Source of the DNA: Lepisosteus oculatus
Lineage: Eukaryota
Assembly: GCF_040954835.1 (NCBI RefSeq)
Contig: NC_090710.1
Coordinates: 31,580,586-31,644,585, forward strand
Length of the DNA stretch: 64,000 nt
Direction of reading: 5' to 3'
The notes under the pieces are model-generated. The model was given only the letters and a program-made list of their open reading frames with translations, did no database searches and was not told the origin of the DNA. Numbering within the stretch: the first letter of the stretch is position 1; each line of letters starts with the position of its first letter. A program made the translations under genes and the position numbers. Positions 5,924-63,879 of this stretch are shown here, one piece after another.

Positions 5924-6061
5924 CTATCTGAAAAACATGTTAGGCGGACCTCTTTTGTCAAGCATTTTATTCTTGGCCTTCAATAATTAATATAAATTCA
6001 CTGACGGCTCGGGTTTCAAAATCTCTTATGAAGACTTGAGTCACTTGCAAGCGAGGTCATA

Positions 6062-7865: not shown

Positions 7866-7918
7866 ATGCATAGGCAACTTCCCTAAAAGGAAACCGAAGA
7901 CGCCCTCTGTACCTGTAC

Positions 7919-8032
7919 CTTCTGCCACAGTGCTGTTCTCCCTCGCTGTCTTGGTAGGCGGGGGGCTGTTTGTGGCAGTAACCTGGAGACTCTTAACAGA
8001 TGAAATACACGTCGCGTTACTTTCAGCTGCAT
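7919..8032 (-). CDS. CENPJ: candidate CENPJ exon (linker region; reading frame uncertain)
   Basis: Strong acceptor ctttcggtctttgtag| and donor GAAG|gtacag; open in two frames; a phase-compatible chain needs frame 2 (..ESNATCISSVKSLQVTATNSPPPTKTARENSTVAE). Confidence 0.35.
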
Positions 8033-8135
8033 CTACAAAGACCGAAAGCGATCACATGTTTTGCCAAACCTCGGTAACAATGTTTTGCCATCGGCAGCTT
8101 CCTACATTTTAAAGACTCAACTGGACTGCCTTCAC

Positions 8136-8207
8136 CTTTTGTTTCTGAAAATACCCCAGCCAGTTTATCCCTACTGACACGAAAAGCAGACACCCAGGGA
8201 GGAGCTA
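8136..8207 (-). CDS. CENPJ: candidate CENPJ exon (linker region)
   Basis: Acceptor ccagccttacag|, donor CAAAAG|gtgaag; APPWVSAFRVSRDKLAGVFSETK (compare human APPRDLGNLDKGQAA); a phase mismatch with exon 8909-9136 implies a further unlocated small exon. Confidence 0.4.
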
Positions 8208-8419
8208 CTGTAAGGCTGGATCCAACACTACACAACCGGTGCCCCAGGAAACACCTGCCAGCCAGTTGTCCCAGTACTAGTGCTCACGGGGAGTGAACAA
8301 AGTGGTATTATTCTTAAACGTTAAAGCGTATTTGCATAGAAATACCCAGAAATAATAGGTAACATTCTGCACTTTTGCCTCCAGTCCTGATCTTCTCATC
8401 TCAAACACAAACCACTTGG

Positions 8420-8800
8420 ACATAATACAGCAAAAACAGTCATTTGGACTGACTTCACTGTCCCAATACCTATGGAAGTGTGTGAAGTTGCAGTACTGTA
8501 TGTGTCACCTCAACCACGATTCCTGGTGTCAAAGACGCACAATTTCACAGTCTTCCTCTGTTCCAAAACCAGGCGGTTGGATGAATAATGAAAGATCTCA
8601 TCTCTTTGTTCTGTTACAGGTCAGAAGTACTGATCTATAGCCAGATGGTTAATGCCGATTTTTTTTTTCTACGTCAGAGATACTATTACTTATTCGACTG
8701 ACACTTTTATCCCAAGACAATTGAAACATTTGCCCCCATTTACACAGCTGGGAATTTTACCGTCGCTATTCAGGTGGAGCTTATGGAGGGAACCGTCTCT
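8420..8800 (-). mobile_element. second copy of the same SINE (body/tail portion, head truncated) in a CENPJ intron
   Basis: About 90% identical to 10325-10650. Confidence 0.65.
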
Positions 8801-8908
8801 AAAAGTATTAGCAAAATAAAAATTGTAACCGTTGGCCGTCAGCGGTCAGCGTGATCCCGTCGTTCTGCACCTAAGGCAATAAGGAGCTCGAGCAGACCCA
8901 GGACTCAC

Positions 8909-9136
8909 AGTGGGCTGGGGCCGCCGGCCGCCGGCCGCGGTGCCTTCAGCACCCGCCTCTGCCTTCCTCCAGGCCTGCACCCGCAGGCGCCCCAGCACGC
9001 CGACCTCCTCGCGCAGCGCGGCGTTCTCCCGGCCCAGGGCGTCCAGCTGCAGGCGCAGCCGCCTCTGTGCGCCGGCCCAGCGCGCCTCCCGCCGCCGCAG
9101 CTCCTCCTGCAGGGCGGCCGCCTGCTGCCGCAGCGC
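8909..9136 (-). CDS. CENPJ: CENPJ coiled-coil exon (very GC-rich)
   Basis: ALRQQAAALQEELRRREARWAGAQRRLRLQLDALGRENAALREEVGVLGRLRVQAWRKAEA.. vs human [61 protein letters not shown]; acceptor ttgttgcag|, donor ACT|gtgagt. Confidence 0.82.
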
Positions 9137-9339
9137 CTGCAACAACACCAGGCCCCAGCCGGTCAGCGCGGGCCCCCTCTGCGCCTCCCCGCCCTCTGGG
9201 GCGACCCCAGCAGCGCGGCCACAGCCCTCACAAGCCCCAGCTACAGCTAGTCTGTGGGTCCAAGTGTGCTTAGACACCACTCTGGTGTGAAAGAGCAAAA
9301 GGCAGATGTTCTTTCTCACAATGTCAACATGGCCCAGTT

Positions 9340-9435
9340 ATAATAATAATAATAATAATAAACTTTATTTTATATAGCACCTTTAAAGGTGGCTTCTCAA
9401 AGCGCTTTACAGGATGACAATAACAATAAATAAGA
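9340..9435 (+). mobile_element. 5'-truncated/partial copy of the AAT-head repeat
   Basis: (AAT)7 then ..tatatagcacc..caaagcgctttacagg as in the other copies. Confidence 0.5.
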
Positions 9436-9587
9436 AGACTACAACAATAATTAAGAAGATTGTTATCTCCCAGCCCCACCCCTTTGATGCTTCCTCAAAC
9501 ACACAACAAGCTTGCATCTGCCCAGCAGTCCAGATCTCCGGCCCCTCCCGGCTACTGCAGAGACAGTCAACATGAATGGCCCCGACC

Positions 9588-9753
9588 TGCATCTCCTCTC
9601 GCTCCTTCTTGTCGGGAATGGCTCTGGCAGCGGCCGCGTACTTCTCAAACACCTTGCGCTCCTTCTGTAGTTTCTTCATCTCCTCCTTCTTCAGCTCCTC
9701 CAGTCGAGCCAGCTCCTCGGCCTTCTTCTGTTCAAACTCCGCCACCTCCTTCC
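9588..9753 (-). CDS. CENPJ: CENPJ coiled-coil exon
   Basis: [55 protein letters not shown] vs human [55 protein letters not shown]; acceptor ctgcttgcag|, weak donor CAG|gtcggg. Confidence 0.85.
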
Positions 9754-10011
9754 TGCAAGCAGCATCTCGTCTTAAACACCATCGCAAACTGGGAATCCCC
9801 CCAGAACCGAACACTAAAACACTTGCAAGGACTTGAAATCCATTGACCCCGATTGTAACCAAAGAATCATCTCTTTTCAGTTCAGTAAGTCCATTCACTC
9901 ATTTGGCAGAATACACAAGAATCAATGCAAGGTGATTTCTCAGCCTGCCCTTCTGGATCTCTCTGCAGAGGTCTCATTTAACGATGCCCCAGGTAGCTCT
10001 CATCTCCCTAC

Positions 10012-10144
10012 CTCAGCTTTTCCAAAGCCGCCTCCCTCTCCTGCCGGAGACTCGCCAGCGCGGAGTTCTCTGCCCTGAAACGCTCGATTTGCGTCTCCAG
10101 TTCCACCAGCCTCTCCCTCAGCAGAGCGGACTGGGGGTTGTGGC
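10012..10144 (-). CDS. CENPJ: CENPJ coiled-coil exon
   Basis: [44 protein letters not shown] vs human [41 protein letters not shown]; acceptor ccttgcag|, donor CTGAG|gtaggg. Confidence 0.85.
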
Positions 10145-10319
10145 CTGCAAGGACACAGGAGGAGGAGGGAGGGGTGGCATTAATACGCGATTCGTCCAAC
10201 CGGTGCAAGCGCTCGTCCAAGTGCAGGCTGAGCTGCAGGGCCAAGGGTTCGAACCCGAGTCACGTCACCAGCTGGCTGTCAGAGGACTTCCCCTTTCAGT
10301 GGCAAGCAGCTAATTGGGA

Positions 10320-10765
10320 AGTCTGTGAAGTTGCAATGTGTGTTACCTCAACCACGATTCCTGATGTCGAAGACGTACAATTTCACAGTCTTTCTCCGTT
10401 CCAAAACCAGGCGGTTGGACGAATAATGAAAGATCTCACCTCTTTGTTCTGTTACAGGTCAGAAGTACTGATCTATAGCCAGATGGTTAATGCCTCCAAC
10501 CGTGTTAAATTCTTCCCGATTTTGTTTTCTACATTAAGGGATACTATTATTTATTTGGCTGATGCTTTTATCCACAATAACTTACAAGATTTGCACCCAT
10601 TTACACAGCTGGGAATTTTACTGTCACTATTCAGGTGGAGCACCCCTGTTCAATGGTACGACAGCAGTGCCTTGCCTGGGATTTGAACCCACAGCCTTCC
10701 AGTTGCGAGTTCCTGTTCCTGACCGCTGTTCCACGCCGCTGCCCCAGCTTGTACAGCGCATACGT
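10320..10765 (-). mobile_element. tRNA-derived SINE (tRNA-like head at 10650-10765, minus orientation) in a CENPJ intron
   Basis: The reverse complement reads ..ggaaggctgtgggttcaaatcccag.. (tRNA T-arm) followed by the conserved teleost SINE body ..cagctgtgtaaatgggtgcaaat..tgtggataaaagcatcagccaaataaataa. Confidence 0.7.
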
Positions 10766-10816
10766 GATGCAGCACAGCTTGCTCTCCCACCCTGCAGTTA
10801 AATATCCCCGGCTCAC

Positions 10817-12224
10817 CTGGCGCCGTGCTGACGGGATCATCCTCCCGGGAAGGGGCGGGCTTTGGTTTGGGTTTCAGAGCCGGAAACAGCCTGGTCATCA
10901 GGTCTGAGGCCAGGGGAGGCCCGCTGTCTGCAGGACTGCCTCCTGGTTTACTGCCTGCCGCCTTCACCGCAGCCACTTTCCTCTTGAGCCCTTTGTCTGC
11001 GGCAGAGAGCCTGCCGGCCGCATCGTTGCCATTGACGTCTTCCTCTAGATCGTTCCATGTGTCGTCATCATCGAACACAAAGGCGTCCTCCGCCGCTGGC
11101 CCCGGCGCTGCAGGCGCTGTGGGGCTGGCGCTGCCCGTACAGCCAGCCTCGCCGCCGTCGCCGCGCCGCACGGCTCCGTCCTCGTAAGACGTTTTGTCGT
11201 ACCGGACACGAGCGTCGCAACCGTGGCCGCCGGCGCGAGCTCTCCCCACCCGCGGGGCCCTCCCCCCCGTCAGGGTGTCATCCATGTCCTCCGAGGCCGA
11301 GCCGCTCTGCCATGACGAATCGCTGTCTTCATCACATTCCCCGTTTCCGTCTCCGGGACCTTTATCCAGGTCCTTCAACACGGACTCCGACCTCGCCTGC
11401 TCTGTCCTGGTGTCCCCCGTTTCAGGCGGACTCCGCGCGGCCCGGTCGTGGGCGCTCCTCTCCGGACCCGTCTTCACGGCTTTCGGAGGTTTAATCGGAG
11501 TAGAGGACAGCCTGCGTCTCCTGCAGTCCAGCCGGTCCAGGTGCAGCACCCTCTGCACGAAGGAGGAGTTGCTGGAAAAGGATATTTCATCCGCCGCCTG
11601 TTCCAGGAGCTCAAATTCATCCAGCTCCAGGTTCTCCTTCTGCTTCTCTTTCTCCCAGCTCTCCAGCTTCCTCTGGAAGGACAGCTCAAAGGAGTACTCT
11701 TGCTCTGGAGGGGGGATGTGCATTGATGTTTTCGGTGGCACACACTGTTTTGTCTCCTCTGAGCACCCCTGCTTCGCCGGGGCCGTCTTGCCAGGCCCGG
11801 CACAGGCCGGCATGGAACCTCCTGCTTTTTTGCCTTGAACCTTCACGGCCAGTGCTTCTTGGGCCTGTCCCGAAACACTCAGCTGTTTTGACTCTACAGC
11901 AGCGCTGTGCCCAGCGGCACTGCCAAGAACATTTTGCGCCTTGCTTCCCTTGGCCAAGGAGACAACCTGCGACCTGTTTGGCGGGCCTGTCAGGCGCTCA
12001 GAGCTGCTTTCTTTGCTCAGTATGGCAGTCTTGCGCTGTACGGGCTGTTGACTGCTTCTGGGCGCCACTGTCCTCTGGCAGCTCGTCTTGGGCTGGGGTT
12101 TAGCGTCAGTTTTACTTGTCTCTTTGACTGGAGCGGCCTTTCCTTTAGTGAACCGAGAAAGACCCTCTCCTCGCTTCAGGAACGCCCTTTTCGGCTGGGC
12201 TTTTACCTCTGCTGCAGCCCGGCC
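10817..12224 (-). CDS. CENPJ: CENPJ large central exon (1408 nt)
   Basis: Continuous 469-codon frame; contains [39 protein letters not shown] (human [38 protein letters not shown]), FDDDDTWNDLEE.., LKRKVAAVK, DLMTRLFPALKPKPK; acceptor tttctaaag| at 12225-12230, donor CCAG|gtgagc at 10816. Confidence 0.88.
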
Positions 12225-18947: not shown

Positions 18948-19148
18948 TGTCCTGTGTCCTGTGTCCTGTGTCCTGTGTCCTGTGCCCTGTGCCCTGTGCC
19001 CTGTGCCCTGTGCCCTGTGCCCTGTGCCCTGTGTCCTGTGCCCTGTGTCCTGTGCCCTGTGCCCTGTGCCCTGTGCCCTGTGCCCTGTGCCCTGTGCCCT
19101 GTGCCCTGTGCCCTGTGCCCTGTGCCCTGTGTCCTGTGTCCTGTGCAG
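18948..19148. repeat. heptamer minisatellite (CCTGTG[CT])n, about 28 units, running into the acceptor of PARP4 exon 2
   Basis: tcctgtg/ccctgtg units read directly; the last unit is ..cctgtgcag|TGCACC. Confidence 0.9.
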
Positions 19149-28029: not shown

Positions 28030-28320
28030 GATCATCTTGAGCAGCACGGTGGCGCAGTGGTTATCGTTGTTGCCTCGCAGCACTGGGGCCCTGGGTTCAA
28101 TTCCTGGGGTGCTAGTATCTGCATGGGGTACCTCTCCTCTGGGTGCTCTGGTTTCCTCTCACAGTCCAGAGGCACACTGGTAGGTTAACTGGCCCTGGTG
28201 CAGGTGTGTGCGTCAGTGTGTGTATTGAGGCAGACTGGCATCGTGTCCAAGGTGTATCTTGCTGTGTGCCTGTTGCTTGCTGAGTCAGGCCTCAGCTCCC
28301 CTACGAACCTCTATTAGATT
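28030..28320 (+). mobile_element. tRNA-derived SINE
   Basis: ggtggcgcagtggttatcgttgttgcctcgcagcactggggccctgggttcaattcc (tRNA-like A/B boxes) then ..ctctggtttcctctcacagtccagaggcacactggtagg.. Confidence 0.75.
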
Positions 28321-38908: not shown

Positions 38909-39004
38909 GCGAGGAAAGCAGAGTTAAAATCGTACATCATTGGCCTGAGCAAAGAGTACTCAGTCGTGACGCAGTTCACCAGCTTCGTCGCCATTGAAGA
39001 AAGG
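38909..39004 (+). CDS. PARP4: PARP4 exon 28
   Basis: ARKAELKSYIIGLSKEYSVVTQFTSFVAIEER vs human MKKQTLKSLIIKLSKENSLITQFTSFVAVEKR. Confidence 0.9.
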
Positions 39005-39638: not shown

Positions 39639-39752
39639 GATGAAGAAAAGCAAGAATTTGGTTCTACAGACATAGAGGAGCTGATTGCAATGGAAGATGT
39701 GGACTGTCTGCCTTACTTGGAGTGGGAGAGTCGAAACCAGGGTTCTAACCAG
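39639..39752 (+). CDS. PARP4: PARP4 exon 29
   Basis: DEEKQEFGSTDIEELIAMEDVDCLPYLEWESRNQGSNQ vs human DENESPFPDIPKVSELIAKEDVDFLPYMSWQGEPQEAVRNQ. Confidence 0.88.
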
Positions 39753-39794
39753 GTAACCGTTAGTTAACGACCTTATAATTCATGTCATACAAAT

Positions 39795-39900
39795 ACAGCG
39801 AGTGCAGACTCTGGACACTCCACTCACAGCGCTTTACAGGTCATGGGGATCCCCTCCACCCCCACCAGTGTGCAGCCCCACCTGGATGATGGAAGGTTAG
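39795..39900 (+). mobile_element. AAT-head family partial copy
   Basis: cactcacagcgctttacaggtcatggggatcccctccacccccaccagtgtgcagccccacctggatgatgg. Confidence 0.55.
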
Positions 39901-40059
39901 TATTGTCGCTGAAGCCTGTGCCTCTCTCTGTTAGCTGAGCACACTCCTTTGTATCGATACAACCTTTGTATCGCAGGATCTCTGCAATGTGATCAGGTGT
40001 ATTCTGTGCCTTCCACAGGAGCTTCTCAAGCTGTAAGGATCAGAAAGACATGGAAAACA

Positions 40060-40340
40060 TATTGTTGGTGGTGGGGGACAGTGGCAGGGTGACAGAGTGG
40101 TGGGCATTGCTGCCTCGTAGCGCTGGGGCCCCGGTCCGGTTTAATTCCCCCACCTGGGGTGCTGTCTGCGTGGAGTTTGCATGTTCTCCCTGTGCTCACG
40201 AGGGATTCCTCCCACAGTCCAAAGACGTACAGTACCGGTAGGCTTATTGGCTGGTGGTAGAATTGGCCCTGGTGCGATTGTGTGTGTCTTCCCTGCGTCC
40301 CCCTTCCAGGCTGCTTTCGTTCATGAACATGAAGGTTATT
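40060..40340 (+). mobile_element. tRNA-derived SINE (same family as 28030)
   Basis: ..ttgctgcctcgtagcgctggggccccggtccggtttaattccc..gtggagtttgcatgttctccctgtgctcacgagggattcctcccacagtccaaagacgtac.. Confidence 0.7.
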
Positions 40341-41066
40341 TTATAGTGTGCAGTACTTTAAAATAAAGGAATTGAACCCATTGCAGTGATGCTCACCACT
40401 GACATTCACTACCTTTTTCAGATGTCCACACGTGCAAATCTCCTGGATTGTGTACATCTGCAGTTCCAGTTTATCACAACTGCTGTTTTCTAAAAAAAGG
40501 TCCCTATTTAAATGTATAAGGATTACATACTGTATGAAAACACAAAAAGGTCATTCAAATAAATGATTGGCATTTAATACCCAGTTCACTGCAGTGGTGT
40601 TTTCACTTCTCTTAGATTACTGGTGATTATTTGATGAATACGTCATTAATTTGTCTGTTGTTGGTGCTGCTTCAGAACAGCGTAAGCATTTGTGGTTCCT
40701 AAATTTTATGGAGTTTTCATATGAAAAAATACAAGACAGCTTTTGATAAAAATGAATACCGTCAGTGTGGGATAACAAGCACACAGAACATCTTGTGAGG
40801 TTAGTTTTAGGTGTGTATTTCTGAAGCTACAGTGCAGTATGTGAACAAAAGCACAAGATAAACGATTGCCACTTGCAAAATGTTTCTCTGAGCTACAGAC
40901 AGGATGAAGATCTTGACTTTGCTGCCAGTCATGTTTGGTAAATAATAACTGTGTGGAGACATATCGGAGTTACAGTGATATCTCACACACTGTATGTAGT
41001 TTCATGTGGAACAGTCCTTTTGTACAAATGACTTCCATGCGTGTGACACACTTTGTTTGTTTTTAG

Positions 41067-41141
41067 GAATATGAGGAGGAAGATGAAGAAGAGATGGACA
41101 GAGAAGACCATGTGCTTCAGTCTCATTCTTTGTCTGAATCT
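41067..41141 (+). CDS. PARP4: PARP4 acidic 75-nt exon, copy 1 of a tandem duplicate
   Basis: EYEEEDEEEMDREDHVLQSHSLSES; acceptor ttttag|, donor TCT|gtgagt; phase 0 in and out. Confidence 0.65.
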
Positions 41142-41389
41142 GTGAGTGACAAACTACCTTCTCTGTAATGGTTTCTCCAGTCAGATGCCACCTTCCTCAA
41201 ATGGAGCAAGTGTTTTTTATTTCCTGTACCTTTGGCCATTTAACCTACCAATATTATACCCCTGGTATCTTGTGCATCTGACATTTGTCCTCTCATTAAC
41301 AGAACAGAACATTTTTTTGTGTTTATCAACAAAAAGAGCAGAGGATAGAAAGTACAGTGCGTCTTTTTAACTCAATCCATATGAGAACT

Positions 41390-41560
41390 TTTCACTGCGG
41401 GACTGGGGGAGGAAACTGGGGCTCCCAGCAAAAACCCATGCGGAGGCGCGCGGAACATGCAGACTCCACACAGACAGCACGTCTGGGCCAGGATTGAACC
41501 CGAAGCCCAAGCGCTGAGAGGCAGCAACGCTCACCGCTTTGCCACGGTGACATCCCTTAG
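41390..41560 (-). mobile_element. SINE fragment (reverse orientation) between the two copies of the PARP4 tandem duplication
   Basis: Reverse complement ..tgtcaccgtggcaaagcggtgagcgttgctgcctctcagcgcttgggcttcgggttcaatcctggcc..gtggagtctgcatgttccg.. Confidence 0.6.
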
Positions 41561-42205
41561 TGTTGTCACATGTGCGCACACGCTAATCTCCTGAATCACG
41601 TTCAGCTGTAGTCCTCATTTATTACACTTACCATTATCTAAAACAGGTCACCTCTTAAACATAGAAGGATTACATTTAGAAAACATAAAAAAGGTCATTC
41701 AAACAAATGGTTGGCATTTAATACCCAGTTCACTGAAGTGATGTTTTCCACTTCTCTTAGATTACTGGTGATTATTTGATGAATACGTCATTAATTTGTC
41801 TGTTGTTGGTGCTGCTTCAGAACAGTGTAAGCATTTGTGGTTCCTAAATTTTATGGAGTTTTCATATGAAAAAATACAAGACAGCTTTTGATAAAAATGA
41901 ATACCGTCAGTGTGGGATAACAAGCACACAGAACATCTTGTGAGGTTAGTTTTAGGTGTGTATTTCTGAAGCTACAGTGCAGTATGTGAACAAAAGCACA
42001 AGATAAACGATTGCCACTTGCAAAATGTTTCTCCAAGCTACAGACAGGATGAAGATCTTGACTTTGCTGCAAGTCATGTTTGGTAAATAATAACTGTGCG
42101 GAGACATATCGGAGTTACAGTGATATCTCACACACTGTATGTAGTTTCGTGTGGAACAGTCCTTTTGTACAAATGACTTACATGCATGTGACACTTTGTT
42201 TTTAG

Positions 42206-42280
42206 GAAAATGAGGAGGAAGACGAAGAAGAGATGGACAGAGAAGACCATGTGCTTCAGTCTCATTCTTTGTCTGAATCT
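42206..42280 (+). CDS. PARP4: PARP4 acidic 75-nt exon, copy 2 of the tandem duplicate
   Basis: ENEEEDEEEMDREDHVLQSHSLSES; splice sites identical to copy 1; lies inside the about 1.15-kb duplicated segment. Confidence 0.6.
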
Positions 42281-42704
42281 GTGAGTGACAAACTACCTTC
42301 TCTGTCATGGTTTCTCCAGTCAGATGCCACCTTCCTCAAAACAGAAAAAGTGTTTATACTGTATTTCCTACATTTTAAAGCTTTTCCACATTATATAATG
42401 TTAAATGAGAAAACACAAGATAACTTCACTAGGAAGTGAACAATATATTATAATGTTTTCAGAAAGTACAAGAACAGAGGACTGTACCTTTATGTGAGCA
42501 AAAGTATGACGTGCATTGACAGCTGGAATTTGAACTTTTAAAAATAAAAATAAGGAAATATTTCTCTCTGCTGAAAATGAACAATGCAGAGACTTGCAGT
42601 AGTAGCAAGGTGTTTACATTTTTATGTTTAAAAAGTTTGATGTGATGTTTTTTTTTTAATAAATCTTTCTGTATGTGTAACGCCCTTTATTTTATTTGTT
42701 TTAG

Positions 42705-44147
42705 CATTATGAATGTGCCGAATATACATTTCTGCACATGCCTCTGTTTGAGCAGAGTGAAGCCCAGCTGAACGTTCCCTATATAAAACCTACATTTTCG
42801 TGTGTGACCTCCATGGCCCAGTCTCCTTCCCCGCCTGTCGCTGCGCCGCAGTGCTCTACAGCGGGCTTCCTCTTTTCTGCTTCAAGCTTCCACCCCCCTG
42901 CAGCACCCACAGGCCTCTTCGGCGCAGGAGCAGCACCCACGGGCCCCTTCGGCGCAGGAGCAGCACCCACGGGCCCCTTCGGCGCAGGAGCAGCACCCAC
43001 GGGCCTCTTCGGCACAGGAGCAGCACCCACGGGCCTCTTCGGCGCAGGAGCAGCACCCAGGGGCCTCCTCGGCGCAAGACCAGCACCCAGGGGCCTCCTC
43101 GGCTCAAGACCAGCACCCAGGGGCCTCCTCGGCTCAAGACCAGCACCCAGGGGCTTCCTCGGCGCAGGAGCAGCACCCAGGGGCCCCTTCGGCGCAGGAG
43201 CAGCACCCAGGGGCCTCTTCGGCGCAGGAGCAGCACCCACGGGCCTCTTCGGCGCAGGAGCAGCACCCACGGGCCTCTTCGGCGCAGGAGCAGCACCCAC
43301 GGGCCTCCTCGGCGCAGGAGCAGCACCCACGGGCCTCCTCGGCGCAGGAGCAGCACCCACGGGCCCCTTCGGCGCAGGGGCAGCACCCACGGGCCTCTTC
43401 GGCGCAGGAGCAGCACCCAGGGGCCCCTTCGGCGCAGGAGCAGCACCCACGGGCCCCTTCGGCGCAGGGGCAGCACCAAATGGCTTCTTTGGCACAGGAG
43501 CAGCAAACACAGGCCTCTTCGGGACAAGACCAGCACCCACGGGCCTCTTCGGCACAGGAGCAGCACCCACGGGCCTCTTCGGGACAAGAGAAGTACAGAC
43601 AGCAGAGACGCTGTCATGTCAGCCACTGGGGATTGGAGAGGCTTCCCTCGTGCTCTCTGGAGAGAATTATGGGGACACGCCGGTCCCTGTCCTGGGTGCG
43701 CTGGGCAGCGTCCTGCCAGATTGGGGCACACTTCATTCCTTCCCCTCTCCCCAGCCCCAGCTGGATCTCCCAGATTCATACCAGGCCGGGGGCGGCTTCA
43801 GGACCTTCTCAAGAGCGTCGGACAAGGACAGGAGAAGCGGGGATGCCGTTGCTCTCAGGTCTTTCCCAACTCATTCACCAGTAACTGTGGATTCAGCCCC
43901 ACACCTGGGTCCATTACAGGACCCAGCGCCTTCACGCTTGATCTCCCAGGATGCATTATTCAGCCACGAAGGTGTTCCCCTGCCCCATTCCCTGTCCCCA
44001 CCATGTTCGCCTGACCTGATGACTGCTGCAGAGTCGCCCAGACCGGCTGAAGGGGCGTCGTGGGCTTTGGGAGGAGGGGCGGGCATCTCGGCTCGACGCG
44101 TCAAAAAGAAGGCCGCTGTACCTTCAGCACGTCTCCGCCTACAAGAG
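42705..44147 (+). CDS. PARP4: PARP4 large low-complexity exon with an AGAAPTG(L/P)FG decapeptide array (3' boundary uncertain: 43971 or 44147)
   Basis: Acceptor gttttag| at 42704; continuous 481-codon frame; about 22 near-identical 30-bp units from about 42900 to 43600; Pro/Ser-rich tail like the human PARP4 low-complexity exon; candidate donors GAAG|gtgttc (43971, phase 1) and GAG|gtggga (44147, phase 0). Confidence 0.7.
42900..43600 (+). repeat. PARP4: coding 30-bp tandem repeat (about 22 units) encoding AGAAPTG(L/P)FG inside the PARP4 large exon
   Basis: gcaggagcagcacccacgggcc[tc]cttcggc units; variants R for T (agg) and LL for LF; internal block ARPAPRGLLGSRPAPRGLLG. Confidence 0.9.
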
Positions 44148-44417
44148 GTGGGATTCGCAGCCCACGCCCAGCAGGAGATGGAAGAACGCGGAAAACGAAA
44201 ACCAAGCGCAGGGGTGGTAGTCTGGTAGTTACACCTTTTTTTTCCATCTTCTATTCTGATCACTTGTGATGTCTAGTCACGTTTGCCGCTGCCCACGCGG
44301 TTATGTTTTCTCTGCAAGCCATTTCAAGCACACTGCTCCTTGTATTGAACCCCCTGTAGGTAGTGATAAAAGCACTAGCTTGGCTGATGCAAACCAGGGC
44401 GTGTATTTTCTTACCAG

Positions 44418-49615: not shown

Positions 49616-51138
49616 CTTTAAATTAAAGAAAGATGTTGACATACGGTTTATAGAAAGTGCTTAATGTTTACTACTTTCAAAATACAACAAGCCTCCCACT
49701 TGCAAAACATCTGACCCATTTCAGGTTCGACAAGCCTCCAGGGCCTGCTCCTTCCAGAGGTACACAAGCCAGGTGAAACGTGGTGTTCGAACTTGCCCCT
49801 AATTAAGAACTTGAACAGAAACCAGCAAAGATTCATACCATACTTAACACGGCTTACAGCTTCATGGCAAAAACAGATTCAAGAAAATCTGCAAATAACC
49901 TACACTTCCAGTATTCATGAGTCAAGCTTATTAGCTTATTACCTGGTAACATACACAGAAGAACACTGCTATTTTTCAGGAAAACAGTAAACATTGGGAT
50001 ATATAGTTAAGTATGGGAAGTTTAAATCAAGAGGTTGAGCAACGCATTACTAAAGCCTTGACTACAATTGTACAATTTTTGTCTCAACATTGCAAAATAG
50101 ACATTACTGCACAGACCAGAGACAAGCAACCAGACATTCCCAGGTTTAAAAAGGCACCCTACCCTGACAGGGTGCTCACCTTTTTGGTCTTAAACAGAGA
50201 ATACCAAGATTCAATAATCCAAACTCCTTTAAGGCACAAACAACGTCAACCCAACAGAAGTGCCCTTTGTACCACAATGCTTCTGTCTGGGTTAGGACAG
50301 TGTTACAAACGGGGGGGGTTACGAAACTGGTGAAAATCAGGAATTGACCGAGTGGTTCCGTCAATCACTGAAATAATTATTGATCATCCCCAACGTGTAC
50401 GTGATTTCTAACCATAAACCCCCGTGGCTGGTATAACTAGAGGCACGTGTATTCTCTGCTCTCTGGCACAGCTTTACAGAGGAGTAATCCAGGCACACTT
50501 GGCTAAGGGAAGCGCATGATTCTTTTTTCACAAGCCGCGTTGCCTTTCAAGTCGTCCAGGGGATCAAGACTCCCAGCGCACAGTGCGATTCAATCCGGGA
50601 CAGAGGTGCTGCACGCTTGGTCAAGCCAGCAGCACACATATCCAGACTGCGCTCTCCCTCGAGCGTGCCCGTGTGGACAGGCGTGCGCCGCCTGTTTCGA
50701 CAGTGAACGGCAAGCCACTGCCTGTCACTCCTGCCAGAGCTCGGCGTCCCTCTTTCACCCCAGTGTGGTTTAGAAATGCCACTGAAATGATCCAAGTGTC
50801 CAAGCCTAAAGAGCAAAATCCGCCTGTATGTTCCTGCGTATTAAACACTTACTCAATTTTCTGTTCGGTTTTCGCCGTAGCTTGTCAATTCCTTCTATAA
50901 GTGACATGAGAAATAAGAGGACGTCACATGGCCCGCAGCGGTCATGTCCAAACTGACAGACCCGAGGATCTCATCCGGCAGCGTCTTGGAACGAGACTGC
51001 GGCGAGGCACCTTCATCCACACTCCTCCTCCGCTCTGAGTCAATCAAAGTGCCTCCCCCCTTCCCTGTTCCAAACACCATTTCACCGAGTCTTCATGTTT
51101 CATTGCCGATTCTGAAGAAGCCTGGAAAGACGACTTAC

Positions 51139-51285
51139 CTTTCAGCTGTCCCACCACATTGGTCAAGTAGTTCTTCAGCTTGGGATCGGTCGTCACGTAC
51201 AGAGGCATATCGTAGTGAGTGACTCGGGTAAACGTCTCTGGAGGGTAAATCCCTCGTTGGTATAAGATATTGTTGATGCCAAACG
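51139..51285 (-). CDS. MAD2L1: MAD2L1 exon 2 (HORMA domain)
   Basis: SFGINNILYQRGIYPPETFTRVTHYDMPLYVTTDPKLKNYLTNVVGQLK vs human SFGINSILYQRGIYPSETFTRVQKYGLTLLVTTDLELIKYLNNVVEQLK; donor AAAG|gtaagt. Confidence 0.92.
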
Positions 51286-51950
51286 CTGTGAAAAATGAGA
51301 AGGTCCATTTTTTTAAAATAGTGCAGAGTACCATAACCTAAACATTGCATATTAGAGTTCCATTTTAAGTACGCCAAACCAGAAAAATACACGAGGCGAG
51401 CTACACGAAGTTTCTGGAGACTGGCTAATCGATCTATTATTGCACGCAAGACACCTCCCTCGTGTCTTTGGGCCGAGAGTCCTATTCTAAAGAATAATAG
51501 GAGACAGACTGGCGCATCGCAGGTCCTGTAAACAGAACACGGCCGGGTCAGCTCAAAGACATCCCGGACCTAGACGTGGCGAAAACCAGCGATGACGAAA
51601 GAGAAGATCACTTTGTTGTCCATATACAAGTTCTTGCATTAGGAATCTGTCTTTTCTCATACCCCAGCTTGTTCTCCATGAGACACACAGGCAGGGAGAG
51701 AAGCTGGGGGTCAGAGCGCAGGGTCAGCCATTTATACGGCGCCCCTGGAGCAGCTGGGGTGAAGGGCCTCGCTCAGGGGCCCAACGGAGAAGGATTCCTC
51801 TGCCGGCCGCAGGAACTAAACACACACTTTTGTGCATGTCATACCTCTCAGTACACAAACGCTAGCTCGTACTTAAAAACTGTGTACAGCACTCAGTGCT
51901 CTGGGGTTTTCAGAAGGGGCTGTTTCTTATTCATGGTGCAATGACATGAC

Positions 51951-54949: not shown

Positions 54950-55635
54950 ATTCATGTCGTTTAAAATGTTTCATTCCCTACTGACCCAATATTTTGGGTG
55001 TTTATTCGCTTCACAATGAATTGCACTAATTATATATATATTTGTGTGTGTGTGCGTTTTGCGCTAGAACGAGAACGCAAAGCAAAGGCTGGTGTCTCCC
55101 GGAATCCCCACTCTGTCTCAGAACGAGCTTTACGAATCCTCTGCGAAAACAAAACTCAGCAAAACCTGCCCGATCTCAGCCGGGAGGGTTTGGAAACCTC
55201 CGTGATCTGTGCTCGACTCGGGGTTTCACGAGAGCACCCCACGCGCCACCCAGCCCCAGGGGCGCAGCTCGCGCTACACTGCGACAGCGGCGTCCGCGAG
55301 CTGCCCCGCGATTGGTCGAGGCGCCCGGCCGCCGCCGATTCCCGCCTACTTTCTCATCTCCTTGTCTGATAGGCCACCCAGCGGCGTCATTCATCGCCAT
55401 GCGCGCTACCATTGGTTATCTGCCGCCCATAATTCCCCGCCCCCCCTGCGGCGCGGCCGTCCCGCCCCCTGAGGGCCAGAGGCTCGAGTTGGTCGCGGCT
55501 GGGGGGCAGGCCTGGCGGTCGGCTGTGGCGCAGACGTGCGGCGTCAAGTTCATTGAAAAAGAAGGGAAGAAGACGAGCAAGAACAAGGAGGAAGCGAGGA
55601 AAAGAAACAGGGAGGCGAGGAAGGCGGCGGAAGAG
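54950..55635 (+). promoter_or_regulatory. MPHOSPH8 promoter / 5'UTR CpG island (extends into intron 1 to about 57600)
   Basis: Very high CpG/GC content around the ATG at 55636 with (TA)n(TG)n at 55030-55055. Confidence 0.5.
55030..55056. repeat. (TA)n(TG)n microsatellite upstream of MPHOSPH8
   Basis: tatatatatatttgtgtgtgtgtg. Confidence 0.85.
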
Positions 55636-55755
55636 ATGGCTGAGCACTCGGCGGGGGCGGCCGAGCGGTCGGAGCCCGGCGACGGCGGGCAGGAGGAGGG
55701 CGAAGAGGGGGACGTGTTCGAGGTGGAGCAGATCATCGACATGAGGACCTCCAAG
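55636..55755 (+). CDS. MPHOSPH8: MPHOSPH8 exon 1 coding part (ATG 55636)
   Basis: MAEHSAGAAERSEPGDGGQEEGEEGDVFEVEQIIDMRTSK vs human MAAATAEAGAAGGDGTGEGEDVFEVEKILDMKTEGGK; donor AAG|gtgagc; sits inside a CpG island. Confidence 0.8.
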
Positions 55756-58101
55756 GTGAGCCCGGAGCCCGGCCCGGAGCCCGGGGCGGCCCGGCGTCCG
55801 TGTCTGGGAGCCCGCGGCCAGGCGGAGTTGGGGCTCCGAGGCCCGTACCGCAGGGGTCACTTCCCGGGCTCTGTCCTGCCTGGAGAGAGAGAGATAGTCT
55901 TCGTCTCTCTGTTTATAGGTTGTTGTTTTTTTTATTAATTACCTCCTGTTGTCGTCGTCGTCGTGGCTGTGGCGGTTGTTGTGGTTTTCCCGCTGTGCAT
56001 GCAGCCGTGCCCGGGTTTTGAAGAGTTAATCGGTGAACTGGGATGTGTCACACGTTAATACTGCGGCGGCCCGGGTCAGGGCAGGCGACAGAGAGGACTC
56101 CTCGGTCAGCCGGGTGGCTGTGAGAGCGGACCGCTTTTTGCCCCGCAGTTTGGATTGCCGTCACGTTTGGATTTATGCTTCGTCAGTCTGTCGGTCCTTC
56201 CCGTGTCTTGACCGGTGTCCAGTGCCCGGCCACACACACACACATATAAACCCGCCGCTCATTTTCCCAAGCGCACAGTCCAGACGAGCTGTAGTCAACG
56301 GCCCTGCTGCTCTACGCGACGTGTTTTGTACAGTATGCGTTTGTCACTTGGGGGGGGTCAAATTCGTTTTAATGTCTTCGGCTCGGTAAGACCACTAATA
56401 CTTATAGGGCGGCTTCCTGTTAAACTTGACACCCGGGCAGAAGAGGGACGTTCATCGGGTTTTAAAAGTCCCTGAACCCCGAAGAATGGAAGATGGCGAG
56501 TTTTATTTTTGAACCCACCCCAGTGCAGGGCAAAGCCCCCTGCTTGCTTTTAAAGGGTGGAGCCGACAGGAAGACCGCTCTTCGGAGTGGGTGCTGAAGG
56601 GTTGTGCCCGTTCCTGGCCACCTGCTTCGGCCTCCCCACCACCTGCTGCTTCGGCGATGCCTTTGCCACCCCTCTCCAGATGACCGAGTGTCTTACAGTG
56701 CCGCTGCTGCTGCCAGGGCTACAGGTTTCCCCTGCAATCCACCCCAGTCGGTTTCAATGCGTAAATAGTATTGCAATCCCAGGAGAACCCGCAGGGAGTG
56801 AGGTTTCCTCTGGAGCAAGTTCGCTCACAACGAACCTTTGCCCGCCAGTTGGTGCGTCTCGGAGCTCTGCAGCCGATGGAAGTTCTGCCCTATTCTGAGT
56901 CTCCAGCCCAGTACTCTTTCAGTTGGCACGGTGTGGGAGACTGTTTCTGTCCCTCGCATTGTAGCCTGGCGCGTGTTTTCCCTCGCTCTCCGCGGTGCAC
57001 GGTGTTTCCTTATTTTTATCTTCTGCAGTGCAGTGTTCTTTAGTATACAGCTCCGCTGAGCCCTGCTCGACCCTAGATCGCCGAGGGTGCTGGGACACTG
57101 ACACGGCCTCTGGGCGGACGAGTCGTCCTCGCCGGCGTGGACGGGGAGGGCCGTGGCCACACCTGGCGTGCTCTGTGCCGGGGAGCCCGGGGGGCCCTTC
57201 TCTTTGTGTCTGGGCTCGGGCCCCTGGGAAGAAGTGTCGGGGTGTGCCTCCGAGTGCAGCAGCCGCTAATCTGGAGGGGTTCCTGTTGCCAAGGCAGGCT
57301 GCGCCGACACACTCTGCGCGTGGCAGATGGCTGCGGAGGCCTTGGGGAGTTGGGGGGGGTGTTTTGAAGCCGGGGTGGCGAGAAGAGACCCCCAGGACCG
57401 CAGGAGCTGGTGGAGCAGAGAGGTTAGCAGGGCCTGTGGCGGCGCTGGGCCTGAGCTACAGCCGGGGAGTCTGGCAGCGAGCCAGTCTTCGCCCCGCCCC
57501 GCCTTTCCGAGCTCGTCTGCCCTCGGCACCTCTGAGGTCCTGTCTGCCGAGTCCCAGAAGCCCTTATAATCCGCTGGGGGGGGCTCTCTCGCTGAGCTGA
57601 GGCTGCAGCGAGAGAGCGGGGCTGTGTGTGGCAAGCACTCTGTGTAAAAAAAACAAAACAAAAAAAACAACAACAAACAAAAAAAAACGTGAACCCTACA
57701 GTTAGACTTCAGCCCATTTTGCAGTTAAAAGCCGATTAATCAAAAGGTCCTGTCCATACCTTTCTTGAAAGAAGCCGGGGTATCAGCCAGCTGTGTTGCT
57801 GGAGCAATCTTATTCGGCATCCCACCCTTCTGTTTCATAAAGATGTCTCCTCTCGTTTGTCAGTGCACTTCCTTCCACGTTTTTTTTTTCCCCCGTGCGT
57901 GCTCTCTTGCCGACGTGGTCGCATTCGTGCGGTAAAACCTTGGTTTGATCTGTTGTAATGAAGGTGCTCGGGGACCTTGATGTGGCGTTGGTGAGTGTGC
58001 TGTGGAGTATGTCAGGAGAATGTCAAGTGGCCCTGGTCCCCAGGGTGGCGTGCGCGGCGAGGGCTTCATCCGGCTGACCCGCCTCTGTTCCCGCGCGGCA
58101 G

Positions 58102-58248
58102 GGGGAGGTCCTGTACCGAGTGCGCTGGAAGGGCTACTCCTCCGGAGACGACACCTGGGAGCCCGAGTCTCACCTGGAGGACTGCGACGAGGTGCTGCAG
58201 ACCTTCAAGAGGAAGCTGGGTGAAAATAAAGCAAAGAAGGACAATATG
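58102..58248 (+). CDS. MPHOSPH8: MPHOSPH8 exon 2 (chromodomain)
   Basis: GEVLYRVRWKGYSSGDDTWEPESHLEDCDEVLQTFKRKLGENKAKKDNM vs human GKVLYKVRWKGYTSDDDTWEPEIHLEDCKEVLLEFRKKIAENKAK. Confidence 0.9.
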
Positions 58249-59734
58249 GTAAGGAAGAGTTCTCTTTTTTTTTTTTTTCCCCCTCAATGCATGTAGGGTC
58301 TTTAAAAAAGTGACATAATTATCAAGGCTACTTGACATTTTCCCAATGGGTAAACAACAAAATCACACCTTCTCTCTGTGGAGCTGTCTCAGACTGGGAC
58401 CACAAGAAGGTTATAGCCAGTTATTCACTGGTGATCTTATTCATTTTTGGCTGCAAGCTTAATGGCAGCTGCACCTGACCTCTGTATAGCCATACAAGAG
58501 AGTGTGTGGAGCAATTTCAAGCTAATTCCCAGATTGCTCACAGGCCTTAGAAATGCTTCAGAAGGTGAGTTATGCCCTGCAATAATGAATAATGCAACGT
58601 TGCTTATTCAGACCTCAAACCAACGTTTGGCTTTGGGTGGAAAATCGCAGTGGGCACCGTCTTAGCCTTTTTTATCCTGTAGGGTATGATGTCAGCCATG
58701 CTCATTTTGACAGCTCACAGTTTGAATCTCGGAAACAAAAGTTAAGTCAAGCAAGTTACTGTGCCTGTGACTAACGTTTTCTCTCTTTTTTTCATGTCGC
58801 ACTTCAGTGAATTTTCTCCCCCTTCTGTAGGAATTAGAATCCAGGGATGGCGCGCAGGTTGGTGTGGTTTGTGCTGCAGATCTGGTTATTTAAACTCCGC
58901 AGCGGAGAGCAGCACGGAGGCACTTGTCATGTTAACCCAGAAAGATCAGGGGTCTTGTGCATCAGGGCCCATGAGCCTGTGCATAGTGGAAAGGCACCAG
59001 TGACTGTGGACAGCTGGTCTAAAGCAGAACACTGTAACCTGAGCAGCTCGGGAGGGGTGGTAGGTCAGCCGCGCCCCAAAGCTTACATGCTGTTATCTCG
59101 CGGAGATAGTGAGGTTCTCTGCTGCCAGCTCCTGCTCTGGAAGCCTGGGTTCTGTCTCGCTGAAAGCTGAAGCGCCAGTCGAGAAGCGGCGCCGTTCTAA
59201 TCCTTCTTACATCTTGGAAAATGCAGGTGGAGGGTGCACAGGTGGAGAGAACGCAGGCAGTAAGCTGTAGTACAGTGCAGGAATGGGCACCCGAGGTCAG
59301 TATTGGAGCTGATGAGGAGCAGGTGGCAGTGGCAGCCAGTGGGGCTCAGACGGACACGTCGCAGGAGGTAAGGGAAGCCCTGGGAGCGCAGGAGGAGCCG
59401 GTACTTGTTCTAGAGGGGTAGAAGGAGGTGCGCCAATGTGGGCGTGTGGACCCCACCCATAGTGCCCTCGGGACCTCAGAGCCGTTGAAATGAAAAGGGC
59501 AGATGTGTAGAAAGTCTAACCTTTCTCTGCATACCTTTTTCCTGGACACTCGTACCCGTGGACAGAATGAAATGCCTGGGAGGGGGTGTAAGACGCACTA
59601 TGTGTGGCTGGAATCCTGCCCAGTGCCTTTTGTCCCTTGCCGGGTTTAGCATTCTTCTCCTGGTACTCTGCACGAGTTTCAGACCAGCTCCGGTCTGGGC
59701 CGATCCTGTTAGTTTTTTTCTGTAATTTTGAGAA

Positions 59735-59790
59735 TCGTCATTTTTTTTTTTTGTTTGTTTTTTTGTTTTTTTTTGTTTTTGTTTTTTACA
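59735..59790. repeat. T-rich (T)n/(TTTG)n tract in the MPHOSPH8 intron
   Basis: tttttttttttttgtttgtttttttgtttttttttgtttttgtttttt. Confidence 0.8.
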
Positions 59791-61960
59791 CCTGGATTTA
59801 AGGTAGCCTACGGTGTCCCGTGGCCCATCACAGGGGTTGTGGCCTGACAGGATGAGAGCGTAGGCAGACTCTCGGGCCGCTTGCCCTTCAGCCCCGTTGC
59901 GGGAAGCGCAGCCCCTTGCCACAGCTCGGCTCCAGCTGGAGAGCAGCACCACGTGCCTGCAAGAGCCCTGAGGGCCCTGGAGACTGTCCCCCCCAGCCCC
60001 CCCCCCCACCTCTGTCGGCGCTCAGAGACGTGATCCAGGCACCAACCACGTGCCTGTGCCAGCTCAGGCACCTGGGAGCCCTCTGCGGTGGATTTGTTTT
60101 TTACCTTGTTTCTGTCCCTAATGGAAATGGCTAACTGCTTGCTACAAAAAGTACCTTCAGTACCTGTTAAAATGACATAATGTACTCCTGAAGAAATGAG
60201 GTTAGAACGTTGCACCGAAAGCGAAATGACAAATCCGAGCTGTCGCAACAGGTGAGAAGGTCAAAACGGCGCAGGAATTGAATGGTAGTGCAGAGTCACA
60301 CCCTGCTTTTGAGCACAAATGGGCACTGAGATTATAAATATGGCAAAGTACATGAAGTGATGAACTTGGTTGCGTGCAGTTAGTACCAGTACAGTCCTTG
60401 GTGACTACTACAGCTCCAGGTGCTTCTCAGATGGGAGCCTGGCTGCACAATGGACAGACTTCTGTTCATGTTGTTGCTGATGGTAGTTGGAATAGAATGG
60501 TAGATGTGTGCCTCCAGGTAGAGTCTGTTTGTAATAGTTTTTTTCTACTGTGTCTGTTAGGGCTCCAAGCTTAACTGTGGTCCCACTTTCTGATGCAAAT
60601 GCAAGGCAAAAGTTTGTCCAGGCTAGTTCTTTGTTCATCAAAGGAAAACGTTTCAGAGAAACTGGCAAAGAATGGTGATGCCTGGCATTGTATTTGTCTT
60701 CCTAAATTGCAGGTTTTTCAGCTAGCCACCTCTTGCTTCCCGCTGATTGCCTTTGCTGACCTACTAATAAGGACCATTCAATCCATAGATTTTCTCATAG
60801 AATTCGTGATGAAGTGTTGGACCCGTCACTGTTAGTTCTGCTGCAACATTCGATTTTAGTTAGACTTCTGCAAACAGCTGTTTCTCCTAAACATTTAGAG
60901 ACGCTTATGATTTGTCCTGGATAGTTTTTTGACAACTGCATCCAATGCCTTAAACAGGGTCTAAAAAACACTGGTATATCATGTACTAAATTATTAATAT
61001 TGAAACATATACGTGCCCAAAGGACTTTATGGACAGTGCTAATTATTGAGCTATATTGTCTGCCCGGTACGATAGCAAGTATTTCTGCTGTCATATATGA
61101 AGTAGGTTATTAAACACTTTATCTGCAGGTCCCCTTTAGATAGTTTAGTCTTTTCCTGTTCCTGTTGGTTTATTACAGTTTCTTTTTTAAAAGTGTCCTG
61201 ACCTTACTGCTAACCAAATTGAACTCTATTCTATCCCTTTCCACTGGTTTCCTGTAGTTGGTATCAGTTTTTTTGTTCATTAGTATCTGTATATTTACTT
61301 TGTCCCATTTATGCATCATGGCTGACATACCTAAGGCAGAGGAGTGTTTGCCCACTTAATGGCTTTATATTTAGTTTAAATATAATTTAATGACTTCATC
61401 TGAAAATTAAATGAAAAGAACATTTTATTTGAAGGAATGAGTTTTATTTAACCAGTTACTGCTATTATTGATTGTCCTCAGTGTTTAGTATGAAATTAGC
61501 ACTTGACACTGGATCTAAGGTTTTGCACTTCACTACCTTAGAAACCTGATAAGTTTTCAGTGAAAGGCCTTCCTTCCCAAATGGGACAGAAAAAAATCCC
61601 AGGCCTGCACGAGTGTTCAAAGACGCTTATGTTTATAAACAGTGTTTTCGCTGTAGTTTCTGGAACACGGTGAATAAGACATTACTCATTCTGCAGGGAA
61701 GTTTCTACCTTCCAAAAACCGCAGCTGGAGAAAAGATATTTATCTAAGCCAGCCAGTGCTTATGATTTTGAGAGAAGAAATTCAACCTTTGTCAAATTTG
61801 GACTTAAATTGAGGCCGAGAACAATCCTTTTTGGTTTAAGAGCAGATATATACTTGTTGGCCTTTGGTATTTGGGAGATTCATGCTAAACTTGGGTGGGG
61901 AAAGAGCTGGAGGAACTACAACAGATTCATGACGCCTTTATGGTCTTTTTCTCTCTTTAG

Positions 61961-63100
61961 AAGCTTCCCATGAAGAGCGACCTGTTTGATGCGGACTCGG
62001 AGAGCGAGGCAGACAGGAAGGAATCCCCTTCAAGGAAGGTGAAGAAGAAAAAGAAGGTGAAGGAAGGATACAGTGCCGCAGACGGTCAGAGGAAAGACAA
62101 GGAGAAGAAGAGCAGGTCCGATCAAGCGGCCGGGCCCGAGGGTAAGGACTCCGAGGAGGGAGACAGCGAATCGGCAGCCTCCGTGGCCGACGCTGGGAAG
62201 CCATCAAAGGCCAAGAAGAGAGCTGTGGAGCCGGCGGAGGAGCTGAAGGCCAACAAGAGGCAGAAGAAAGAAGAATCCAAAGGTCTTGCAAAGCACAGGA
62301 AGGTCCCCGGCAAGAGCAAGAAGAAGCATAAGGGCTCCAAGGAGCACAGGAGTGACGCGGAGAAGCAGCCGGACTCCGCGGAGGACTCCCCTCGGGAAGA
62401 CGCTGCCGAGCCCCAGGCCGAGCCGATGAGCGTGCCGACCGAAGGAAGCGGCGCAGAAAGCGTCGCGCCCAGCTCCTCGGAGAAGACCCCTCTCCCGACT
62501 CAAGGCGACGCGGACCCCTGCTCCGAGCAGGGACCCCCAGAGCAGAAAGCCGCCTGCAAGAAAACCAAGGTGCAGCAGCCGGGGGAGACTAAAGTGAAAG
62601 CCCTGCTAGTGAAGGAGCCCGCGCAGGAGAAGAGGAGTGGGAGGCCGGAGGGCCAGCTACAGAGGAAGGAGAGTACCCACGCCAAGCTCAAGAATCTGCT
62701 TCTGGCCAACAGGCCACCGGACTCGGCGGCCAAGGCTCACAAAGCCCCGAAGAGCGCGGCGGAGGACGAGCCGGGGTTCCTCTCCTCGGACTCCAACGAG
62801 GGGGGCAGCTCGGTGAAGAAGAAAGGCAAAGGCAAAGCCCGGGACGCCTCGCCCAGGGCCCCCAGCAGGGCCAAGCAGGACGAGGCCAAGCTGGATCCTC
62901 CCTCGGGCTCGGGGGCCGCGGGGAAGGGGAGAGACGCCGGCAAGCCCGCGAGGCCCGAGGAGCCGATGGAGTCCCCCAACCTGTTCGAGAAGTTTCTGTT
63001 GACGTGCGAGGCGAAGGACAGGATGCCCAGGAGGCCGAGTAGCCACACGCCCAGCTCCGCCGTGGAAGACAAAGCGGACCAAACGAAGATTTCCCCCAAG
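61961..63100 (+). CDS. MPHOSPH8: MPHOSPH8 exon 3 (1140-nt Lys/Ser/Glu-rich exon)
   Basis: Acceptor ctctctttag|, donor CCCAAG|gtgtgc; continuous 380 codons; KLPMKSDLFDADSESEADRKESPSRKVKKKKK.. vs human RLSLNNDIFEANSDSDQQSETKEDTSPKKKKKK. Confidence 0.75.
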
Positions 63101-63879
63101 GTGTGCTGATCTTCTCGTGCCTTTGCGCGTCGTCGGCTAGCTCTGTTCAGATGTTCGTACCTCGCGTTTGGTGAACCAAGGTTTTCTTCAGCTGCCAAAG
63201 AAACAAAGTTCATATTTTGAAAGAAATGACCAATTTCACTTTTTCTGACTCATTTTCTGCATGAATTTACATTTCACTATGTTCCTACGATGAGAACAAA
63301 GCACTTGTTCCACACGTGGTTTGTGCTGCATTGCTCTGCTCGAGTTGGGGTCGGAAGTGAAGTTAATTCATGTTGTGGTTCTCGCTGGCTGGTCAAGTGA
63401 TGACCTGCTCTTGGTGGGAGGGAAGGAGTTTTTGGTTGGAGGTGCTCGGCCACCCCGCCAGAATAACGCATGTACTGCATCCTTGAAAACCTGAGCAGGC
63501 GCAAGTGTAGCTCCCTTCCACACACCATGAATGCGATTCTTGGGAGAGCACTGTGGGACCAGGGCTGCCGTCAGTCTTTTAGAACCTGTGGGACAGCTAA
63601 ACCAGATGCTTGCAGAGGCCCAGTAAGTCATCTGGGGGCCACTAGTGTATTGCTAGCAAGTATGTAAAACATCTTTCCCAAAGGGAGGATATGCATACAA
63701 TCGTGTGATTACTTAATTAAATGTTCCAAGATGGGGTGTAAACGTTATATCTTCCGCTGACGTACATCTAAGTAATGAGCTAGAAAACGCCATATTGTAA
63801 TATTTAGTTTCTGTAGATAAAAGCAAAACACGGAACAGTCTTTTACCTGTAAGCAATTGTTGTTGTTTTTTTCATGTAG

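Follow-up and report, generated by a model that had tools for sequence, protein, structure and literature searches.

The question raised by the PARP4 gene of the spotted gar (Lepisosteus oculatus) is how one of its small exons came to stand twice in succession, and what becomes of the two copies. The gene lies in the 64-kb stretch of contig NC_090710.1 analysed here (the window, in whose coordinates all positions are given). The exon pair is an intragenic tandem duplication of a small symmetric 75-nt exon in the disordered linker of PARP4. As judged from sequence comparison, its history probably comprised two steps, an old tandem duplication that spanned about 0.97 kb and a later homogenisation of the core of the duplicated unit, most likely by gene conversion.

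The assignment of the locus to PARP4, made in an initial annotation of this DNA from the letters alone, was confirmed by Pfam and by tblastn with the RefSeq protein. Open reading frame fragments on the plus strand matched BRCT, PARP, VIT and VWA in that order, which is the PARP4 architecture. The PARP (E = 2.8e-10) and VIT (E = 5.8e-14) matches were above the curated cut-offs, while those to BRCT_3 and VWA were weaker and below them, as expected of single-exon fragments. The full series of BRCT, PARP catalytic, VIT and VWA domains and C-terminal vault-interaction region lies on one strand. RefSeq spotted gar PARP4 is a protein of 1948 aa (four accessions, XP_069034865-68, with one sequence and no isoform label) and is encoded exon by exon in the window at ~97-100% identity, most exons at 100%. 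A non-repetitive query from exon D, the largest exon, retrieved an NCBI entry named PARP4-like from Lepisosteus oculatus at 97% identity, and full-length RefSeq PARP4 is in the 90% cluster of that entry.

The two exons, C1 (41067-41141, plus strand) and C2 (42206-42280, plus strand), are each 75 nt long and phase 0/0. They encode EYEEEDEEEMDREDHVLQSHSLSES and ENEEEDEEEMDREDHVLQSHSLSES, residues 1223-1247 and 1248-1272 of RefSeq PARP4, and are identical at 73 of 75 bases, the two differences being T41070A (Tyr to Asn) and T41084C (synonymous). Both have the acceptor ...ttttag/GAA and the donor TCT/gtgagt (slash, splice junction), so that the acidic exon with intact splice sites and phase 0 in and out, which the initial annotation had described in each copy, could be read directly from the sequence. 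C1 and C2 share the donor TCT/gtgagtgacaaa, with no difference in at least the first 12 bases of the intron. Their acceptors, ...tttgtttgtttttag/G for C1 and ...ctttgtttttag/G for C2, differ only in the polypyrimidine tract, which in C2 has a 6-nt deletion and is shorter by that length than in C1. TGAC branch-point-like motifs, identified by eye and without a quantitative splice model, are present upstream of both acceptors. Usable splice signals were thus found at both copies, with GT-AG at both exons and an intron of 1064 nt between them. As in the metazoan tandem exon duplications described previously (Letunic 2002; Kondrashov & Koonin 2001), the gar exons are adjacent, on the same strand, of equal length and phase, and similar in sequence.

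In RefSeq PARP4 the order of residues is ...SNQ-EYEEEDEEEMDREDHVLQSHSLSES-ENEEEDEEEMDREDHVLQSHSLSES-HYECAEYTF..., with the 25-mers starting at 1223 and 1248. It had been noted initially that both copies could be included in frame and would then give an internal 25-aa repeat, and the two 25-mers do stand in tandem in this protein. According to the RefSeq model, then, both copies are spliced into the annotated mRNA, and the duplication is already implicit in that model; a literature search found no paper pairing "PARP4" with "exon duplication". The 50-residue doubled segment contains 24 Asp/Glu and 8 Ser. It is preceded by exon B (39639-39752, plus strand, phase 0/0; DEEKQEF...NQGSNQ, residues 1185-1222), the upstream neighbour of C1, and by exon A (38909-39004, plus strand, phase 0 at the relevant boundaries), and is followed by exon D (42705-44224, plus strand), which corresponds to human exon 30. 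The 44224 end of exon D was read by eye, and tblastn matched 42705-44222 to residues 1273-1778 at 100%.

Since the single recorded gar protein has both copies and nothing enforces exclusion, constitutive inclusion of both exons is expected in vivo. In this the gar pair is unlike most metazoan pairs, which the literature has linked to mutually exclusive splicing, whereas the annotated gar product has both copies. The characteristics of a mutually exclusive pair were not found in the exon length (75 nt, or 25 codons), the length of the intervening intron or the GT-AG boundaries of the two exons, docking/selector pairing not having been specifically sought. Alternative use of the copies, also raised by the initial annotation, is possible in principle, all local exons being phase 0/0 and every combination in frame. 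Isoforms of largemouth bass PARP4 vary in analogous duplicated linker units (0/1/3 and 1/2/3), and an inverted pair of short interspersed elements (SINEs) around C1, described below, could loop C1 out. No support for such use was obtained in gar, where the four RefSeq accessions give one protein sequence with both copies present and no feature enforces exclusivity. We regard the use of the copies as mutually exclusive or independent cassette exons as unlikely.

The sequence around the exons was then examined for the extent of the duplication. A repeat search identified three collinear families of direct repeats with a spacing of 1139-1145 bp, at 40600-40899/41745-42044 (300 nt, 99%), 41056-41201/42195-42340 (146 nt, 98%) and 40544-40604/41688-41748 (61 nt, 93%). 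These were merged by blastn into one match of 40415-41201 to 41563-42340, with 92.4% identity over 793 columns. Tandem Repeats Finder (TRF) cannot detect the duplication, since its period of 1145 exceeds the 500 limit of the program, and reported only a 30-nt array. Alignment of the two copies with their flanks by MAFFT, followed by column statistics, separated two levels of identity. The core, at 40544-41201 in unit 1 (plus strand) and 41688-42340 in unit 2 (plus strand), spans 658 bp and in unit 1 takes in exon C1 with 523 bp of the intron before it and 60 bp of the intron after it. Its copies differ by 15 substitutions in 652 ungapped columns and by two indels, of 1 and 6 nt (97.7% identity, K 0.023), in agreement with the near-identical intervals of 40548-41200 and 41688-42340 first annotated. 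The left arm, at 40415-40543 in unit 1 (plus strand) and at 41563-41687 in unit 2 (plus strand; delimited by comparison with unit 1), is much more diverged. Its homology was scored at 68-71% (E = 7e-15), and the alignment has 40 mismatches in 125 ungapped columns (68%; Kimura two-parameter distance 0.43). With z = 8.8 to 24.5 against controls, the homology of the left arms is, on sequence comparison, beyond doubt. The transition between the two levels is abrupt: the maximum chi-square statistic places a break at 40544/41688 with a value of 140.7, compared to a permuted maximum of 26.3 (0 of 2000 permutations reached the observed value), and the contrast in mismatches between arm and core is highly significant (Fisher p = 8.8e-23).

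The right edge of the core is equally sharp, identity falling from 97.7% to ~60% at 41201/42340. Beyond it, the right flanks of unit 1 (41202-41384, plus strand) and unit 2 (42341-42523, plus strand) share weak collinear homology. Their best local match (68% identity) is collinear, lying at offsets of +101 and +98 bp counted from the edge of the core, and a forced end-to-end alignment gave 58-62%. The score of the right flanks was reached by 2 of 3302 segments of real sequence from the window used as controls and by none of 222 AT-matched controls. A free-end semi-global alignment of the same flanks (+1/-1 scoring) aligned nothing and was uninformative. Upstream of the left arm, the sequence preceding unit 1 (40200-40414 and 39753-40080) showed homology only at noise level when compared with that upstream of the junction SINE. 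The unit measures ~970 bp, of which 129 bp belong to the left arm, 658 bp to the core and ~183 bp to the right flank, and when the 178-bp SINE between the copies is taken out, unit 1 abuts unit 2. The initial annotation was therefore correct in describing a tandem duplication, while the length of 1.15 kb that it gave is the period of the repeat; clear homology extends over ~0.79 kb, or ~0.97 kb with the weak right flank.

A single duplication would give the whole unit one age, and the 18-fold gap in divergence between arm and core therefore requires a second process. The favoured reading, which we consider probable on the present comparison, is that a unit of ~0.97 kb, comprising left arm, core and right flank, was duplicated head to tail in an older event, with a SINE now at the junction of the two units. 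The 658-bp exon-bearing tract would later have been homogenised through gene conversion, or through an unequal exchange of equivalent effect, giving a 97.7%-identical core between flanks that are only ~60-70% identical. A sharp-edged block of near-identity inside a longer paralogy of low identity, as expected of a gene-conversion tract, was found, the homology on the right being weak, and in this the locus resembles concerted evolution by ectopic gene conversion of tandem paralogs. The step in identity at 40544/41688 is not compatible with the single "recent" duplication that had been proposed initially. Nor need the core itself be young. Gars have some of the lowest substitution rates in chordates (PMC12863190), and with so slow a clock a core divergence of 2.3% need not mean a recent origin. 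The two genera of gars diverged 100-115 Mya and have been described as "over 83% identical" (PMC12863190). Reading this figure as a pairwise divergence of at most 17% would make the core at least ~13 My and the arms more than 200 My old, but it could not be trusted as a per-site neutral divergence, and these ages were dropped. An explicit neutral substitution rate for gars was not found in two papers, and no absolute dates are given here.

Several points weigh against a two-step history. Gene conversion, most likely the homogenising mechanism, is deduced from two sequences in one genome, in which respect the gar case differs from established concerted evolution. The homology of the right flanks is weak (z about 3), and were it spurious, the duplication would simply have its breakpoint where the core ends on the right. 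In principle, the left arm might stem from an old interspersed repeat present twice, and not from an old duplication; no further copies of it were found by blastn in the window, to which that search was confined. On any plausible gar clock, flanks as diverged as these (K about 0.4-0.6) would make the event very old, and such an age sits awkwardly with the lack of a doubled exon in bowfin. Finally, the RefSeq XP models that carry the C1-C2 junction are computational.

If the old duplication had not been followed by gene conversion, the near-identity of the core could be ascribed to strong purifying selection, for instance on intronic regulators of splicing. Conserved intronic elements do occur around regulated exons, and in the core high identity does form a sharply bounded block that encloses an exon. 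Selection would, however, have to hold 523 bp of intron to ~5% of the flank rate in both copies, within a linker lacking conservation even in bowfin. Differences between the cores are also spread evenly, at 2 of 75 positions in the exon, 12 of 517 in the upstream intron and 1 of 60 in the downstream intron; since exon and intron have diverged equally, coding constraint does not explain the near-identity, and no known RNA family matches the core. Selection without conversion is considered very unlikely.

A different origin had been proposed by the initial annotation, in which the SINE at the junction would have mediated a single recent duplication of ~1.15 kb by unequal crossover between SINE copies. 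The matched core of a first tRNA-derived SINE copy was located at 40082-40186 (plus strand; the element spans ~40060-40330) and a second copy at 41385-41562 (minus strand), between units 1 and 2 and inverted relative to the first. By blastn the first copy matched 41453-41552 at 72% over 105 nt, on the opposite strand only, and also 28044-28200; the SINE at 41385-41562 likewise matched 28045-28107. A/B-box-like motifs of tRNA type were recognised at the 41560 end of the second copy by eye, against the known RNA polymerase III box consensus. No SINE-like sequence was found after unit 2 by blastn within the window. The presence of a SINE at the junction thus stood. Together with the 97.7% identity of the core and another SINE upstream of copy 1, it recalls non-allelic homologous recombination mediated by Alu or other SINEs. 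A duplication of that kind, however, should have repeats of one orientation at its two breakpoints, the one at the junction being a hybrid copy. Here, by contrast, the SINEs are inverted, copy 2 is followed by neither a third SINE nor any other shared repeat, and the junction SINE lies outside the repeated sequence of the units. The crossover also predicts a same-orientation arrangement of repeat-X-repeat-X-repeat with X identical, but the 183 bp that follow core 1 fall short of near-identity with what follows core 2. Adjacent segments of 68% and 97.7% identity cannot come from one event, and the very slow gar clocks argue against a recent one. Duplication by crossover between these SINEs is accordingly judged highly improbable.

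The same two SINE segments, 40082-40186 (plus) and 41453-41552 (minus), bracket exon C1 as an inverted pair and are strongly complementary as RNA (duplexfold -164, against -88 +/- 7 for shuffles). Pairing between them might favour the skipping of C1, or its looping out; the RefSeq model nevertheless includes C1.

An assembly artefact, whether a falsely duplicated haplotype or a collapsed or expanded repeat, might be suspected in a region that was evidently hard to assemble before, the older annotation having only a C-terminal fragment of PARP4. The window contains no Ns, however, and the copies differ by 15 substitutions and two indels, have very different flanks and are separated by the SINE and 183 bp of non-repeated sequence, a pattern unlike that of a haplotig or stutter, which makes an artefact scarcely credible. 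Equally implausible is a young interspersed element inserted twice and exonised in part, to which the sharp edges on both sides of the core might point, given that no other copy of the core occurs in the 64 kb, that the region has no inverted repeats of at least 40 nt and none were seen by eye at the core ends, that collinear homology continues in the flanks on both sides, and that an acidic stretch stands at the equivalent position in PARP4 homologs as distant as that of an intron-poor metagenome eukaryote.

Comparison with orthologs, suggested by the initial annotation, showed no doubling in bowfin, sturgeon, bichir or any of the teleosts sampled. After a conserved VD.L.Y motif, a single, poorly conserved acidic stretch is present in bowfin, sterlet, bichir, tarpon and eel. 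A search for the gar 25-mer allowing up to 9 substitutions gave no match among 120 other proteins. Among the sampled species, in which spotted gar is the sole gar, the doubling is, from these sequences, specific to the gar lineage. When the spliced local peptide was used as a protein query, it retrieved six fragmentary gene calls on contigs from metagenomes or other eukaryotes, and an exact-match scan of metagenome contigs for the duplicated exon gave no match. Distant intron-poor homologs of PARP4 have a single acidic, serine-rich stretch at the equivalent position, in one case adjoining PARP/VIT/VWA gene calls.

Among 106 fish sequences with both anchors, the PARP4 linker ranges from 85 to 805 aa. 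Tandem repeats (at least 8 aa, at least 80% identity) were found in 40 of the 106 linkers, 12 of these 40 being isoforms of one species and other species recurring, so that ~30% is a fairer figure per species; the repeat units are unrelated between lineages. The conger linker has an acidic repeat of its own (37 aa x 2), that of Micropterus salmoides has 27/28-aa units in 0-3 copies depending on the isoform, and pike (Esox) and mudminnow, among others, each have lineage-specific repeats. In the moray Gymnothorax, the equivalent of exon B appears by eye to be duplicated.

Tandem duplicated exons occur in 7-17% of metazoan genes (reviewed in PMC3342872), and on its own the gar duplication, which the RefSeq model already includes, is minor: it lengthens a disordered and poorly conserved linker by an acidic stretch of 25 residues. 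It neatly illustrates, on a small scale, two-level identity in a genome whose clock is among the slowest of chordates, and adds one data point for the repeated gain of lineage-specific tandem repeats by fish PARP4 linkers. That wider pattern extends the hypervariability described in mammals (PMC4038475) to a different mutational mode. Daugherty et al. (2014, PMC4038475) found the largest PARP4 exon, human exon 30, to be disordered, to vary greatly in sequence and length from one vertebrate to another, and to be under positive selection in primates and bats. Like that hypervariable region, the gar exon pair belongs to the linker that joins the VIT/VWA region to the C-terminal domain. The duplicated exon differs in being small and separate, just upstream of the largest one, and in varying by exon duplication rather than by point substitution. 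A bolder proposal is that recurrent gene conversion keeps the acidic exons near-identical under selection for the doubled module, with gar as one case of convergent linker expansion in ray-finned fishes. If true, the linker would be a length-and-charge "accordion" in a region that is positively selected in mammals and has been proposed to face pathogens. We hold this to be a long shot; that the extra acidic module has any functional effect is likewise something we infer.

The 30-nt array reported by TRF lies inside exon D, in frame, at 42900-43582 (30 nt x 22.8). It encodes 23 decapeptides of the AAPTGLFGAG type, residues 1338-1567 of RefSeq PARP4, with 17 FG and 10 GLFG motifs, a composition like that of nucleoporin GLFG repeats; no Pfam match to it was found at E <= 0.01. 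An older NCBI model of gar PARP4, XP_015219583.1, is a C-terminal fragment of 218 aa only (window 43.9-46.8 kb) and differs from the current protein by three amino acids and a 20-residue gap. This suggests a break in the older assembly or annotation, inside or close to exon D with its many repeats, and a degree of polymorphism between sequenced gar individuals.

An RNA gene within the core was considered and rejected. A sub-threshold Rfam match to SCARNA7 at 41591-41750 (minus strand), across the boundary of left arm and core in unit 2, scored 18.4 bits against a gathering score of 65 (E = 0.12) and is most likely due to chance, and ARAGORN found nothing.

On the minus strand upstream of PARP4, within 3878-12068, lies a CENPJ-like gene (Tcp10_C match), and a HORMA-domain (MAD2-like) exon was found at 51044-51334 (minus strand). 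Downstream, at 55042-63109 on the plus strand, is a gene that, judged from its sequence, appears to resemble MPHOSPH8. The PARP4 entry of Amia calva is a chimeric model on which Pfam places ankyrin and chromo domains, which fits an MPHOSPH8-like neighbour adjoining PARP4 in holosteans. Within PARP4 itself, a 7-nt microsatellite (CCTGTGC, x 28) at 18951-19146 abuts the acceptor of the exon that encodes BRCT and begins at ~19146.

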